Under the pieces are notes generated by a model. That model was not told where the DNA came from, did no database searches, and saw only the letters and a program-made list of their open reading frames with translations. Shown here piece after piece: positions 1 to 64,000 of a stretch of 64,000 bases of DNA (within the stretch, counting starts at the first letter, position 1; each line of letters starts with the position of its first letter). A program made the position numbers and the translations under genes. The stretch lies in assembly GCA_951406725.2 (NCBI GenBank), contig OX597820.1:24738001-24802000 (forward strand). The letters run 5' to 3'. The DNA comes from Octopus vulgaris. Lineage: Eukaryota.

Positions 1-721
1 TTGCTTTTCTCCTCTCGACCATATCCGGTGGCATATTAATGCTACCATCTTCTATTGGCTGCGGTTTTCTCTGCTCCCATTCATCTAAATTATCTATGTA
101 TATGTATGGATGTATGTATGCATGCATGCATGTGTATGTATATGTACGCATGTATGTATGTATCTACGTATGTATGTACGAATTACGGAATGTATAGGGC
201 ATATGTATATTTATGCATATATATGTATGTGTGTGTATGTATATATGTGTGTACGTCTATCAGCCTCTTTCATGCCGAATATTTTTTAACGGTATTTACA
301 TATGTCAATTATATATTGTGGCATTATTGCTCTAAACCTGATCTCTTTCAATTTACCAAGTCCTTTGCTAATCGTGTTGCCCACAAGGAATATTTTCGTT
401 ATGGACGTGAAATATTTATTTTTCTCATGTATGCATATATATATATAGAGAGAGAGAGAGAGGGAGAGAGAGAGAAAGAGATGGCTAGATATAGATATTC
501 ATACACACACACACACACACATACAGGATGGCAGGAAAGAAGAGAATAATTCATAAGATTTATAACCGTCCTTCAAACAGATTCAGTTTTAGGCGTGAAT
601 TGTACGATCCTATAAACATTTTCTAATCTGTTTTCTTCTGACATATTAGTAATTCAATTTCTGGCAGTGTGTGTATGCATTGGTGTGTTTCTAAGTGTCA
701 GGGAGAGTGATAGAGAGAGCA

Positions 722-9901: not shown

Positions 9902-10148
9902 TAGGTAAATGAATTATCCTATGTTTATCGTCAGCATGGAAAATTCATTATCGCTTTGTTTACCATGTAGGCAATCATCGAAATTTTTGTTTGTCTTGTT
10001 GTCGAGAGAGGCTCCCTTTCTTTCCTGATGAGAAGATTGCATAATGCACCCTTTATTCCTATGGAATAAAAACATGCTGTCTTCGAAACATATGTCGAGA
10101 GTAAATGAATTTTGTTAACATCTTCGTTCGACTCCATTCTTTCATTTA

Positions 10149-11153: not shown

Positions 11154-12463
11154 ATAAATGGTGGGGTTGTGTTGACCGCACGTGGAGAAATGATAAGTAA
11201 GGAAAAATTTTTTTAAAAATGCAGAATGCTCAAATGAAAGAAAATTTTAATAAAATGAGAAGTTGATAAAATATATAAATATATATTTATTCAACCGGTT
11301 TTCGTCATTGTATGACTTGTCAAGAATATTTATGTTTTAAGAAGTTTTTTTAAAAATTAGAAAGGGGAAAAAAAGAAAAAGAAAATTGCATTGTTTTTTG
11401 TAAAAGAATAATGATAAAAATGTACAAAAATTAAAAAATAAGTTCTCCGATACATTGTGAGTTCGTTGTGTATCTTGAGTTTTATGGTTGTTTACGAAAA
11501 AATTTCCTTGAGGTGTTAAGATCCAAAGGGATTAAGAGCATGTGTTGTGTTGTGTTGTTAAATTCAGCATGTTTGCAGGACAGGAAGTAGTAGTAATTGT
11601 GGTCCTGGTTCTTCAGTTCCTGTGTTGTGAGTAAGGGGAGACAACTCTTTTGAGTTCTTCAATAAAACCCAAATTATAAAACTATCATTTTAGCTTCATT
11701 TGCATTATCTTTTTTATATAATTGCTTGTTAACTTAACTTTCAGATTTTAACACTTTATTTATATTATTTTCTAATAATATAAATCTGCATAGACAATTG
11801 CATTTCAAATTGTCATATCATTTATAATAAAAATGATAGTAATAACAACAATAGTAAAAATGATATTTAAAGAATATAAGTTTTAGCTTGAAGTGATGAA
11901 TGCATGGTATCTTTATATATTTGTGTTAGTCCATCCATGAAGAGTGAGGTAGAGAAAGGAAGTTTGATCAACGAGGAGTTTGCATATTAAGTTGTGTTTG
12001 GAATTTTTCAATAAAGAGATTCTCCTTGTTAATTCTCTCCTGTGTGGTGATCCCGTCTTTACATTGGTAGAAGGGGAATATATAGAATTTGGGGTTTAAG
12101 TCTTTAGCACATGAGTCTAAGTGGTCACTCAGTGGAATTTGTCGGTATTCCGGGAGATTTATTTGTTCTTTATGCACCGTTACTCGTTTACGTAACGGGA
12201 GACTCGTTTGTCCAACATAATTATGTTGGCAACCAGCGCATGTGAGAACGTAGATAAGGTTCTCGGAGGAACAGGAGAAGTTAGTCTTGATTTTAAACTT
12301 CGTACCTTGTTTGAAGGTAAATTCAGAGCCTTCAAGTAGAAAGGGGCAGGTTCCACAGTTTGAGCGTGCACATTTTTTTACTGTTGGGGGTGGATGTGGT
12401 GTGTGAAGTTTGGCATTTGTCAAGAGTTTTTTTAAAGATTTGTGTTGCATTTTGCATTTGAGG

Positions 12464-12466
<3 letters not shown>
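11150..12466 (-). mobile_element. 5'-truncated Penelope-like retroelement: uninterrupted GIY-YIG endonuclease C-terminus (12466-11968) plus 3' UTR/pLTR
   Basis: ORF reads KKCARSNCGTCPFL...FSCSSENLIYVLTCAGCQHNYVGQTSLPLRKRVTVHKEQ...ERINKENLFIEKFQTQLN (Zn-knuckle plus GIY-YIG of PLEs). (TA)n on both sides. A variant hammerhead-like motif lies at 11291-11325. Confidence 0.92.
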
Positions 12467-12536
<70 letters not shown>

Positions 12537-12539
12537 TAT

Positions 12540-12692
12540 ACAATGGGTTTCATTTAGTTTCTGTCTACCAAAACCACGTACGAGGCTTTGATCAACCTGA
12601 GGCTATAGCAGAAGACACTTGTTCAAGGTGTCACACAGTGGGACTGAAGCCGAAACTATGTGACTGAGAGGCAAGCTTCTTATCCCAGTCAC
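12540..12692 (-). mobile_element. SINE family A head fragment
   Basis: tttctgtctaccaaa...ggctatagcagaagacacttg...cagtgggactgaa matches family A. Confidence 0.75.
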
Positions 12693-26610: not shown

Positions 26611-26793
26611 TACGCAAATGTGTGTGTGTGTGTGTGTGTGTGTATACAAACAAAATTTTTTTTCATATATACAAACATAAATATATATATATAAATATAA
26701 CATACATACATGCACGCATACATACCTTGTGTTACATAGGAATTAACTGTTTCAGTCTAATGTACTAATACTTTTTTCTCTTCTATTTTGTAG

Positions 26794-27826
26794 AGAACTG
26801 AGGCTGAGCCTTGAATCCAGTGGAGAAATACTGGATTATACCCAAGACAGCAGCAATTATACTTTCCAAATATTAAATTTAGTCAAAGACCTAAAAGGGA
26901 CAAAAATATGGAAATTTGTTGGAGCAGTCGATAATTTCTATGTAAATTTAAGCACGGTGGCTGAACTTCCGGGTCGGCGGGAGAATGCTACGCACCGTTT
27001 TCGCAAACTTTATAGCATCATTACCAAAGTTTCACCACCATTTATCATGCAAAAAGAGGCCTTTTCCGAAGATGGTGACTGCTATTCGTACGTGCCATGT
27101 GTTCAGGTAGCCAATGAAAGTGATGTTGATAATGCATTCGAAGACTACTTGCTTACTAATCGATACGATCATGACAAATTCAGTGTTTCTTGCTGCACAG
27201 GAGTGACCATAGATATCTTGGTCAAACTGGCGACGGACATGGAATTTGATTTCATCCTCTTCTTTCTCAAAGAACCTTTCGATGGAAACTACACGTATGA
27301 TTCAGGAAGTTGGAATGACACGTTAATGTACCTGGAAGATGACAGAGTCGATATAGTGGCAGGGCCGCTCAGTATAACAGTAGAACGGGTAAGGTATATC
27401 ACATTCACTGAGGTGTATTTTTACACTGGCTTCTCCATGATTACCATGAAGCGAGAGCGTGAAACTTCCATGGACGCCTTTCTAATGCCTTTTTCCGTGG
27501 AGGTATGGATCGGCATAGCGATAAGTGCCACAGTTACTGCCGTAGCAACATCATTGTTCGAGTGGAACAGTCCATTTGGACTCAACCCTAAGGGGAGAAA
27601 ACGGGAGCGCAACTATACCCTTGGTTCAGCACTCACTATGGTTTATTCAGTGCTTTTTGGTCATATTGTGCGCACCAAATCCCCTAAAAGTTGGCCAGGA
27701 AAAGTACTTCAGAACTTCTGGGCAGGTCTTGCAATTTTTATGATTGCAAGTTACACTGCTAATTTAGCTGCATACCTGGCAGGCCGCTCCGAGCAGTCGG
27801 ATTTACTAAACATAAATGACGAACGG
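26794..27826 (+). CDS. GRIN3A: Internal coding exon of an ionotropic glutamate receptor, NMDA GluN3-like (end of ATD, S1, M1, M2 pore loop, M3)
   Basis: Acceptor ttttttctcttctattttgtag| at 26793 and donor gaacgg|gtaagt at 27827. The frame is open from ELRLSLESSGE... to ...DLLNINDER. Motifs include CCTGVTIDIL, GSWND, AGPLSITVER, TEVYFYTGFS, FEWNSPFGLNPKGR, LFGHIVRTKSPKSWPGKVLQNFWA and SYTANLAAY. These match the recalled GluN3A-type pattern (FEWKSPFG..PKGR, LFGRT..IKPPKCWTG, TYTANLAA). The symbol marks the class, not proven one-to-one orthology. Confidence 0.95.
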
Positions 27827-42810: not shown

Positions 42811-42941
42811 TTGCGAACAATGCAAGTGGCTACCTTAGAATACGGTGCTGCCAAATATTTCCTTTCCAAAATCAACCCTAGCCTTTACAACAGCTTGAAA
42901 ATGTCCGTGGAATCTATAGAAGAGGCCTTGCAGAAATTAAA
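42811..42941 (+). CDS. GRIN3A: Next coding exon of the GluN3-like receptor (start of the S2 lobe); absent from the supplied ORF track
   Basis: Acceptor taattttcag| and donor aa|gtaagt, 131 nt. The phase-0 start matches the previous donor. It translates LRTMQVATLEYGAAKYFLSKINPSLYNSLKMSVESIEEALQKL(K/N), aligning with the post-M3 iGluR S2 segment (cf. FGTVRESSAEDYV...GVQYLK). Confidence 0.88.
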
Positions 42942-43068
42942 GTAAGTAAAAACGTTTATCTTCTGTTTTATTTCTGTCTATCATTGATGTTTTTGTCGCT
43001 TATCACCCCGACCAGTCCAGATGGACTAGATCTATTATCCAGCCTTAACCGTTCCGTGTTTGTTTTAG

Positions 43069-57363: not shown

Positions 57364-57672
57364 ACACGCGCTCTTACACACATGCGTACGTGCAATTATT
57401 TGCATCCGTACACACGCGTATATAAATATACATATACACATACTGTTTTAACTGAAGAAAATGTGTTAGAGATAAATTCCTTGTTTAAATCTGCCTAGGG
57501 ATTAAAACTTGTGTATGCATGTATGTATGGTATGTGTGTATGTATGTATGTACGTATGTATGTATGTATGTATGTATGTATGTATGTATGTATGTATGTA
57601 TGTATGTATGTATGTATGTATGTATGTATGTATGTATGTATGTGTTCATGTTTGAATCTTTATATATATGTA

Positions 57673-57750
57673 TATATCCGCTGATGAGAACTTCGCCTGG
57701 CAAATTATTTTACTTGATAATTAAAGTTCGAAACCGGAGGTCCAGATGTA
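57673..57750 (+). ncRNA. Type I hammerhead ribozyme motif (copy 1)
   Basis: tatatccg CTGATGA gaactt...aagttc GAAA cc-gga-gg TC cagatgta. Helix II is gaactt/aagttc, helix III is cc/gg, and helix I has one mismatch. GUC cut site after 57742. Confidence 0.8.
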
Positions 57751-58126
57751 AAACATGGTAAATGTTTTTATTTTTTATTTCCTTCGAAATTGCTTTTAAC
57801 TGTGATGTGGACTTTTTGACTGTTCTTTCTAGTATGATAGGCAACCTGTTAAGACTCGCTTCTTTGTGTTTAAATGTACACAATTTTTATATGAAAAATA
57901 TGTCTATTGACTTTGTATACATACTAGGCCACTGGTAGAAGAAACTTCTACAATTTCCCCTACCCTATATCCATTTTAAGAAATGATATTAGCAATTTCT
58001 GAAGTTTAATCAGAATTTTTATTTGCTGCCGATTCAATCTGCGCTTGCGCGGATGATTCGAAAAATTATAACATATAAGGATGGACACGTGTTATTTGGT
58101 CTCTAATTTATATGTTAATGTTTTGG

Positions 58127-58204
58127 CGTATCAGCTGATGAGAACATCACCATGCCAATTATTTTATTTGCTAATTAAGGTTCGAAACCTGAGGTCCGGC
58201 TGTA
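58127..58204 (+). ncRNA. Type I hammerhead ribozyme motif (copy 2)
   Basis: cag CTGATGA gaac...gttc GAAA cc-tga-gg TC cggctgta. The core is intact but helix I is degenerate. GUC site after 58196. Confidence 0.7.
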
Positions 58205-58617
58205 AAACATGGTGAATATTATTTTTCATTCCCTGCGAAATTGCTCTTAAGTGTGGTTTGGACATTTTGACTGCTCTTTCTAGTATGTTAGGCAACCTGT
58301 TAAGGCTCGCATCTTTGTGTTTAAATGTACACTAATTTATATATTCATATACATGCATATATATATATATATATATATATATGCATGTATATGAATATAT
58401 AAATGCATATATATATATATATATATTACATTATATAAGGGCTTAGTAAAATAAATTACTTTGCCACATACTGAACTCATTAGAAATAGCAGCTAAAAAA
58501 ATTTTTTTAACTATTTCTAATACTTAAAGAAAATCTCTCTCATATAGTGTTTGCTCAAGTCAACTCACGAAGGTATGGGGGTAAAAACATTAAAAAGTCA
58601 CAAATGCAAAGGTTATT

Positions 58618-58669
58618 TGAGAACGTACGTTTCTAGATTAGTCAAATCGACATTTCTTTCGTCAGCTCA
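58618..58669 (-). ncRNA. Minimal type I hammerhead ribozyme motif
   Basis: Minus strand: tgag CTGACGA a-aga-aat-gtc-gattt-gac-taa-tct-a GAAA cgtacg TT ctca. Helix I is tgag/ctca, the helix III stub is palindromic (aacgtacgtt), and the site is GUU. Confidence 0.78.
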
Positions 58670-59175
58670 GAACTCCTTGATTCGGATTTGGGAACACTGA
58701 AAGTGGGAGCATACCCTTTTGGCTTCTTATCACTTCCGGAGATCTGCTCGAACTATCAGTGCTACCAAATTCAAAATATGCAAGCGAAGAATTTCTGCTC
58801 TCCCCTTTCCACCAGCGTGGGTTAAAATTGGTAAACACTATGTTTTATCGGTACAAACCGAAGCATTAAATAGAGAGAAATGAATTATAATTTCAACAAT
58901 TGAGGGTAAAATTAATTAATTATTAATCGATTTCACCAAGTATTCAGTATGTAAAGGGACCATTTAAGGCGAATTCAAATTATTACATTATATAAGGGCT
59001 TAGTAAAATAAATTACTTTGCCACATACTGAACTCATTAGAAATAGCAGCTAAAAAAAATTTTTTTAACTATTTCTAATACTTAAAGAAAATCTCTCTCA
59101 TATAGTGTTTGCTCAAGTCAACTCACGAAGGTATGGGGGTAAAAACATTAAAAAGTCACAAATGCAAAGGTTATT

Positions 59176-59227
59176 TGAGAACGTACGTTTCTAGATTAGT
59201 CAAATCGACATTTCTTTCGTCAGCTCA
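59176..59227 (-). ncRNA. Minimal type I hammerhead ribozyme motif (identical second copy)
   Basis: Identical to 58618-58669, offset 558. Confidence 0.78.
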
Positions 59228-59398
59228 GAACTCCTTGATTCGGATTTGGGAACACTGAAAGTGGGAGCATACCCTTTTGGCTTCTTATCTAAGCCCTTAT
59301 ATAATGTAATAATTTGAATTCGCCTTAAATGGTCCCTTTACATACTGAATACTTGGTGAAATTGATTAATAATTAATTAATTTTACCCTCAATTGTTG

Positions 59399-59441
<43 letters not shown>

Positions 59442-59454
59442 TTCTATCTATCTA

Positions 59455-61522: not shown

Positions 61523-62790
61523 AATTGATCTGCGTAAAAATGTCAAGAAGAGTACTCCATCTAATGAGAGTCCTATATTAATGTATGCGTTTCACTCCTC
61601 ATATATTACACGTGCTCCTAACAGTTTCACGTCCATGACAACTACGTTCATCCGTCATCAGGCGCTGCTTATTCTATTTAACTTATTTAACATTAAATCT
61701 AAATATCTCCTCATATAAGCCTTACCATAAATTCGATGAAAAACTAACATATAGGCATAGATAGTCCTGCCACCCTCTTGTTATAATTAAAAATCTAGTA
61801 GCAAACATTAGCAAAAGGGTATCTAATCCCTCATTCTCTAGGGAAATGTTCAAGAGGGCTGCCCCATATTACAACAAAGCTTTAGCTAATAGTAGGTTTA
61901 AGGAAAAGTTGGTATATAAACCTTCGTCTAATAAAAGTATTAACAATGGACGTAGGGAAATTAATGATAACGTATCACATTCTAATCAGAATCCTGTAAG
62001 TAGATCAAGATAAATTATTTGGTTTACCCCTCCTTTCTCCCTGAGTGTAAAGACGAATATTGGTAGAAAATTCCTGACCCTCCTAGATAAACACTTTCTT
62101 GAAGCGCATATATAAGGAGTCAAGACTATTGAAAAGGTTGCAAGATGCAACGAAAATTTTAGGAAAATAAAAATAAGAAATAAGTAGAAATTTTACCGGT
62201 GAGTGTGTTACATTATAAGGCACAAAAAGAAAATAACTCTTCCCAGACACAACAGAATATGCTCCAACACACGAACTCACATAAAGAATCTGGCAAACCA
62301 AATCCCAAAACGAAATTTAACAGAAATTCTGTTAAATTATCATATAGCTGCTGCCCGAGCATAAAAAGTATTACCACCTGCAATAACTAACAAGAAACTG
62401 AACCAGATTGCAATTATCGCTACGTGGAATCCTGTTCGCTGGACCAGTAGTGTATGACGAAGTCCAGAGGTCTCGGCAACCCTTAATAGCAGTGACACAA
62501 CCAATAAAAGAACATACATCGGATTATGTGAAGGAACTTTTAAAAAACGTTACGCCAACCACATGGCATCGTTCCACCACAGTGAGAAAAGCAAAACCAT
62601 AATACTGACGAGCCACATTTGGGTCGTGAAAGTGGACCATATGTGATCAGATGAAGAATAATAGAAAGGTCTAAAACATACGTGAATGGATCTAATAGAC
62701 ATATACTTTAATTGGCTGAAAGGGTGCAGGTTTTATTTACATTCGAGATTCCGAACTCGATATTGAACTCGAGGTTGTAGATTTTTAATG
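61520..62790 (+). mobile_element. Decayed Penelope-like retroelement (RT thumb/linker plus GIY-YIG) with an upstream inverted hammerhead-like pLTR piece
   Basis: Frameshifted FKRAAPYYNKALANS.FKEKLVY, IIWFTPPFSLSVKTNIGRKFLTLLDKHF, KFNRNSVKLSYSCCPSIKSI, GPVVY, YIGLCEGTFKKRYANHMASF. The minus strand at 61612-61665 reads CTGATGA cggatga-acgt...acgt GAAA ctg TTA. Confidence 0.85.
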
Positions 62791-63269: not shown

Positions 63270-64000
63270 AGAGTATGTGTGTCTGCATGTATATATACAT
63301 TAATGTATGTATAAATACACACACAGGTATTACTTTGTTTTTTTATTTAGTTTTTTTTGTATTTTTTGTTTTTTTGTATTTAGCAAAATTTTATTGCCAC
63401 AAGATTTATATATATGCTTACATACATACATAAATGTGTGCGTGTGTGTGTGTTCGCACGCGCGCGCACGTAGTATGAGTAATTAAAAATGCTGAAATAA
63501 AATGAAAAGCTATAAAAACCTCATTGTAGGCTAAACAAGACATTAAACACAATCTCTATTGTTGAAAGAGAAAATCCTGACAGACTGATCTTTAAAGGAG
63601 AAGAATTTGATTTCCTCCCCGAATCAATAACATTGACCAGCTGCTTATAAGACAATCATAAATTAGGCTAGCACCGTGGTAAGTGATATAATTTCCATAT
63701 TGACATTTTGATGGCTTGTCATTAAGTAATGTATGCAGAGAACAGTATAAATTAGAAGAACTCGAATTTAAACACTATAAAATGTTGCAATGGATTAAAC
63801 AAGAATATAAACATATTGTATGCTACATTTGATTGGAAAGAAGAGGTGGTGCGGATCACTTGACGGCTGTATCACAACTTATTGACTGTTGTGTACGTCA
63901 AGATGTTAAGTCGTGCGTCAAAACGTCAAGACGCTCGTAGCTTCAATAAACAGCAACTACCAACCACCGGATTATAGGTCAGTTGGAAGGGCCACTCTTG

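Follow-up and report, generated by a model that had tools for sequence, protein, structure and literature searches.

Two hammerhead ribozyme motifs occur in tandem, 454 nt apart, in a 64,000-nt stretch of Octopus vulgaris DNA (assembly GCA_951406725.2, contig OX597820.1, positions 24,738,001 to 24,802,000 of the forward strand; here called the window). Do they still act as ribozymes on a host transcript, and how did they come to lie where they do? We consider it highly probable that the pair is an old, 5'-truncated retrozyme copy of about 1.5 units, lying in sense in an intron of a GluN3A-like gene and likely pasted there by Penelope-type machinery, and that its ribozymes are, by prediction, largely inert.

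The hammerhead pair and its host intron

The host gene is identified as that of a GluN3A-like NMDA receptor subunit by the open stretch of a large exon (26792 to 27826, + strand). Its best match among solved structures was GluN3A (E 4e-49), and it was 100% identical to an 'NMDA 3A-like' protein of Octopus sinensis and 90% identical to an Argonauta protein. When the Argonauta protein was compared with 100 kb of DNA 3' of the window, further GluN3A-like exons were found at about 71580, 79706, 102148, 115123 and 150907 (window numbering extended). The closest database protein model (P0001) stops just past the large exon, where it reads on into the intron, and therefore lacks the exons located further 3' in this analysis. 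The exon 5' of the host intron spans 42811 to 42941 (+). The intron starts at 42942 (GTAAGT), occupies the window to its end at 64000 and continues for another 7,581 nt to extended position 71581 (TTGCAG), giving a GT..AG intron of 28,640 nt. The frame across this splice reads ...LQKLKSNELDVF... and agrees with the Argonauta ortholog; the 44-aa exon by itself gave nothing informative against Pfam or PDB. The original prediction had placed the hammerheads in a receptor intron in sense orientation and had asked for the next exon as a check. That exon lies 7.6 kb beyond the end of the window, its spliced frame matches the ortholog, and the placement was borne out.

Inspection of the + strand revealed CUGAUGA cores at 57681 and 58135, GUC ends at 57742 and 58196, and GAAA in both motifs. 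Each has a GAAC/GUUC helix II enclosing a 34-nt loop and a 3-bp helix III. Hammerhead 1 (type I, 57678 to 57745) has an intact core and intact helices II and III, with a predicted cut after 57742; hammerhead 2 (type I, 58118 to 58210) has its predicted cut after 58196. A hammerhead descriptor gave 3 matches in the 64-kb window and 0 in 100 dinucleotide shuffles. No Rfam match in the window reached the gathering score; at E<=10, the region from 57600 to 59450 gave 39 weak matches, none to a hammerhead family. Unconstrained folding of the two motifs returned neither a hammerhead fold nor a stability signal (z 0.58 and -0.53). The motifs open direct repeats at 57675 to 57892 and 58129 to 58344, which are 85.8% identical over 219 columns at a spacing of 454 nt. 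Thus, the two GUC-type hammerheads, their predicted cuts and the diverged repeats of about 200 nt were all found as first described.

The initial description also stood as regards the retention of both cores and of the GAAC/GUUC helix, but it had overlooked a mismatch in the middle pair of the 3-bp proximal helix I, which is C.A in hammerhead 1 and A.G in hammerhead 2. Through truncation at 57675, hammerhead 1 has lost its GGCG loop together with the 5' strand of distal helix I. In hammerhead 2 the distal helix I is whole (6/6 pairs), and a predicted loop-loop contact has one pair broken. Likewise, the tandem repeats were correctly seen, whereas the spacer of about 240 nt between them (57893 to 58128) had not been recognised as part of the repeat unit; it belongs to the family unit and is not host DNA. 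The whole insertion runs from 57675 to 58344 (+) and contains only short frames (<=58 aa) among those listed. It is flanked 5' by a (TATG)n/(TA)n microsatellite (57520 to 57674), probably the host target, and 3' by 79 nt of TA-rich microsatellite (58345 to 58423).

Beyond this tract lies a member of a young 558-nt hammerhead family (58424 to 59406, - strand), antisense to the gene, with CUGACGA cores at 58665-58659 and 59223-59217 and an inverted 118-nt part. The two elements had been described as abutting directly and forming a ribozyme cluster. The 79 nt of microsatellite intervene, however, and the neighbour is an unrelated and much younger family on the opposite strand: comparison of the 558-nt family with the unit of the older element revealed no similarity (best E 0.11), its internal repeats are 99.7% identical, and its near-full-length relatives reach 90-99% identity, with several-unit arrays. 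Since its hammerheads are on the minus strand, they are absent from the receptor pre-mRNA, and the two elements do not form a cluster in RNA. Most likely, the 558-nt element is the later arrival, having entered the TA tract at the 3' end of the older one. Arrays of at least four units of the 558-nt family occur near G000:C1:213.67 Mb, and its CUGACGA hammerhead was identical in 7/7 loci scanned.

A dispersed family of about 456 nt

That the element is a copy of a retrozyme family dispersed through the genome had not originally been recognised. The repeat and its spacer were each found dispersed over many contigs (976 and 1284 first-look candidates, counts that probably include sister families; 40 of each were scored). 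Alignment to a tandem of the unit showed the copies to be circularly permuted with respect to a single unit, whose majority sequence is 456 nt long with 32% GC, and units are joined directly, repeat to repeat, head-to-tail. The pieces are old and dispersed, span 0.3-1.7 units and show 79-98% identity to the family majority (median 91.5%; 73 segments of at least 150 nt), with the studied copy at 93.2%. A 25-letter core pattern had 15 exact matches genome-wide, among which the two at the studied locus are the only tandem pair. The 16 letters after the cut had 44 exact matches, about half of them (counted by eye) already collected, which suggests that hammerhead-bearing copies number in the order of a hundred genome-wide. 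Two complete hammerhead spans in one run were seen only at L001, L030 and L147 among the loci studied. At L030/L132 (G000:C4:130.314 Mb), a 483-nt inverted arm accompanies a 783-nt direct arm, and the latter carries two tandem, fully intact hammerheads. No young master copy was found among 40 scored candidates, the best near-full-length non-self match to L032 being 90%.

A sister family, recognised by a 20-letter motif with 123 matches, is about 67-82% identical to this family in long stretches and has unit spacings of 441-465 nt. In most of its hammerheads (L101-L130) the core reads UUGAUGA (C3U) and the stems are compensatory. As to expression, contigs from four runs, compared at 80% likeness, yielded mostly other pieces of the family and sister family, and contigs of this kind do not reveal ends, strand or level. 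None of the papers listed on octopus hammerheads and on cephalopod retrozymes describes the family, although supplements may list cephalopod elements; we take it as a further member of an already known kind of retrozyme.

To what extent the ancestral unit was a ribozyme was judged from 13 family and 16 sister copies, hand-picked as complete from 42 and 30 collected. Comparison of the two families revealed six stem pairs with double changes. Helix I holds four of them, one proximal and three distal, and helix II the other two, of which one is paired in only 8/16 sister copies. These compensatory pairs, together with a clustering of 5' ends at the cut site (see below), suggest that the ancestral ribozyme likely cleaved. 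Both families retain GGCG in the helix I loop and CGCC in loop II, and these could form a loop-loop contact, a predicted pairing without covariation. Family helix III is palindromic, a property linked to dimer action of hammerheads in the account given in PMC4209133. Folded as a circle, the majority monomer is compact and strongly self-paired (z = -4.5, 30 shuffles). The core and all helices are fully intact in 21/61 complete family hammerheads. Changes in catalytic letters across the family were rarer than background (16 observed, 40 expected; 59 loci), a deficit that could stem from a bias of the search or from selection as the family amplified.

The ends of the copies were analyzed in 83 segments from 63 distinct loci. 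The 3' ends fell in two clusters after the cut site, at +141..180 (48/83) and +221..260 (17/83), and a microsatellite of period 2 or 4 lay 3' in 47/83 segments, compared with 9.8% at random positions. Both orientations were present in 20/62 loci. The 5' ends were assessed in those of the 15 best spacer-selected copies that start between the cut and +151; of these 12, 6 start within -4..+15 of the cut (p=0.002). Over all loci, a set that includes matches from a query starting near the cut, 8/16 did so (p = 4e-4). Upstream family sequence was retained in 41/44 of the post-cut 16-mer matches. The first cut site was mostly passed, while at the second 8 copies stop and 4 pass. The 5' ends at the cut and the upstream retention thus indicate that reverse transcriptase usually went across a single junction and frequently halted on reaching the following cut site. 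The 5'-end cluster could also be read as stalling of the enzyme at helix I, a reading made less likely by exact +1 starts at L039 and L155 and by the ease with which the first junction was passed. First-junction passage with stops at the second cut points to templates whose 5' end was made by the ribozyme and in which one junction was uncut or re-joined. For L030, with 483 nt inverted and 783 nt direct, a multimeric or circular template would have been needed.

The 5' truncation, inverted partner, microsatellite target and clustered 3' ends of the family are traits of Penelope-type insertion, and from them we infer mobilisation by Penelope-type machinery. The window holds other sequence of this type. 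A Penelope-like element of very recent origin is represented at 11971 to 12549 (-) by its 5'-truncated end, with GIY-YIG at the Pfam cut-off, and broken frames at 61765 to 62643 (+) resemble what we take to be a second Penelope-type endonuclease end. Of 150 copies scored in the young GIY-YIG family, 125 show 100% identity over 139 aa, and open frames of 753 aa occur in many. Across 30 loci of this one family, no sequence homology between the retrozyme and the end of the autonomous element was detected. A reverse transcriptase/GIY-YIG frame near L030 was set aside as an autonomous partner, as a microsatellite and other DNA intervene. L126 and L127, on the same strand 2.4 kb apart, have near-identical surroundings, and no Penelope frame was among those listed there.

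Taken together, a route can be proposed in which tandem units would be transcribed by read-through and the RNA would cleave itself by its type I hammerhead with palindromic helix III, probably aided by dimer folding. A borrowed Penelope protein would then nick a TA microsatellite and prime internally on the RNA, some 150-165 or 230-245 nt past a cut site. Copying would proceed backwards across a junction that was uncut or had been re-joined, and would usually stop at the next cut-generated 5' end. In the studied copy, reverse transcription would have read through two junctions, and the two repeats would later have drifted independently, with no sign of selection.

Decay of the studied copy and its possible activity

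Compared with the family majority, the studied copy carries 46 differences, split 15/14/17 over the first repeat, the spacer and the second repeat. None is shared between the repeats, which points to a single template followed by independent drift. The chance of two intact cores ranged from P = 0.054 (25 letters) to 0.25 (11 catalytic letters each) at a locus that was picked because both cores are intact. With the changes evenly spread and the intact cores within chance, no purifying selection was detected at the locus. Both hammerheads fall outside the fully intact set, helix I being broken in each, and at no point of the element are two consecutive hammerheads intact in the core and all three helices.

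Constrained folding was carried out with ViennaRNA, which ignores tertiary contacts and co-transcriptional folding; on this basis the active folds within the whole element cost 17.6 and 16.9 kcal/mol, compared with 7.3 and 7.7 for the majority. The penalties in isolation were 5.7, 17.9 and 3.7 kcal/mol. The double-hammerhead fold, which combines core 1 with the cut at 58196, cost 15.9 kcal/mol here and 5.0 in the family majority. The cut-to-cut monomer (57743 to 58196, +; 454 nt), folded as a circle, gave z = -1.2 (30 shuffles), compared with -4.5 for the majority. From these models we infer that both hammerheads would at present be largely inactive. The original prediction held that host transcription could excise a 454-nt RNA, and it named helix I mismatches beforehand as the point on which it might fail. 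Such mismatches are present in both motifs; the resulting loss of cleavage is a prediction. Excision requires two cuts; with a disrupted helix I in each motif and active folds that cost 16-18 kcal/mol (5-8 for the majority), it is modelled as unlikely. At most one cut, at 58196, could be made via the double-hammerhead fold.

Could the locus nevertheless be active? It is possible, if unlikely, that this decayed retrozyme keeps a residual, unselected activity, its double hammerhead occasionally cutting the nascent intron once at 58196. When core 1 is combined with that cut, no proximal pair is lost, and the two mismatches of helix I are confined to the other site. The palindromic helix III matches that of the dimer-acting hammerheads discussed in PMC4209133, and in the majority the dimer fold (5.0 kcal/mol) is cheaper than the cis fold (7.3-7.7). 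Against this stand the 15.9 kcal/mol that the dimer fold costs in the studied copy and the lack, in core 1, of the distal helix I strand and GGCG loop for tertiary support. The same geometry, with one double-hammerhead site dead and the other intact, would allow the relic to have been tamed into a one-cut intronic switch, an idea to which we give little credence. If it were true, the pre-mRNA would be cut once with no mobile monomer released, and in octopus neurons receptor output would hinge on whether cleavage or splicing came first: an invertebrate counterpart, in an NMDA receptor gene, of the CPEB3 and RECK intronic ribozymes.

Slightly less probable still is exaptation by the host, with the ribozyme tuning GluN3A-like mRNA output in the manner of the amniote RECK hammerhead or the CPEB3 ribozyme. 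The pair is in sense in an intron of a neural receptor gene, has both cores intact and is the sole tandem pair among the exact core matches. The intact cores, however, are within the chance range given above for a locus picked for that trait, and the divergence equals that of other copies and hits the functional helix I. Moreover, the introns of this gene contain three other type I hammerhead-like motifs in sense (+), at 10025, 22605 and extended 72562 (the next intron), each with an unbroken helix I of 5-7 bp and a palindromic helix III. Such insertions are thus common there, and intronic hammerheads form the background in this GluN3A-like gene; judged by their helices, these three are better candidates for cutting the pre-mRNA than the pair with cuts at 57742 and 58196. 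Antisense type I hammerhead-like motifs were also noted in the introns of the gene, at extended 114471 and 114094 (-). The least credible reading is that two cuts release a 454-nt RNA able to circularise or re-transpose. With two complete hammerhead spans, the architecture is competent for a source, but helix I at the 57742 cut is broken whether the motif folds in cis or as a dimer, and the compact fold of the monomer is lost. At most 3 derived changes are common with any other copy, where 0.9-1.2 are expected; the sharing does not exceed chance, and the locus was rejected as a source. The decayed and largely inert retrozyme copy remains our preferred reading, and as such the locus itself is ordinary, one more retrozyme copy in a retrozyme-rich genome.

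Comparison with known systems

Metazoan non-LTR retrozymes are described as head-to-tail units of 150-450 bp, those of mussel being 350-390 bp (Cervera and de la Pena 2020, PMC7229834; 10.64898/2026.07.22.740005). By its sequence, the family fits this class as outlined in PMC7229834: it is non-coding and low in GC (32%), with head-to-tail units, one type I hammerhead per unit and a self-paired monomer. As far as that outline extends, it differs in its unit of 456 nt, just above the range, in the long structured 34-nt loop of helix II, and in occurring as pieces of 0.3-1.7 units instead of long arrays; the studied copy differs further in its broken helix I. In the account of Li, Clavereau and Pollet (2026, 10.64898/2026.07.22.740005), 42-44% of Xenopus retrozyme copies overlap introns, and non-LTR retrozymes are derived from Penelope pseudo-LTRs.

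Truncation, inversion and microsatellite bias are among the Penelope insertion traits catalogued in PMC8557442, and internal priming with AT-rich nicking has been demonstrated in vitro (PMC11167929); the 3'-end clusters and microsatellites of the family fit the latter activities as reported there. Partial tandems, an adjacent inverted copy, an internal start of reverse transcription and a palindromic helix III are likewise shared with Penelope elements as these sources and PMC4209133 present them. Unlike Penelope elements, the family has no reverse transcriptase/GIY-YIG frame between its repeats, and its units join directly. The hammerheads of amniote RECK, CTCL and DTNB are conserved across amniote lineages, and a retroelement origin has been proposed for them (PMC6155905). 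The studied pair resembles these, and the CPEB3 ribozyme, in being intronic and in sense; unlike the amniote hammerheads, as characterised in that report, it shows family-level drift and a broken helix I.
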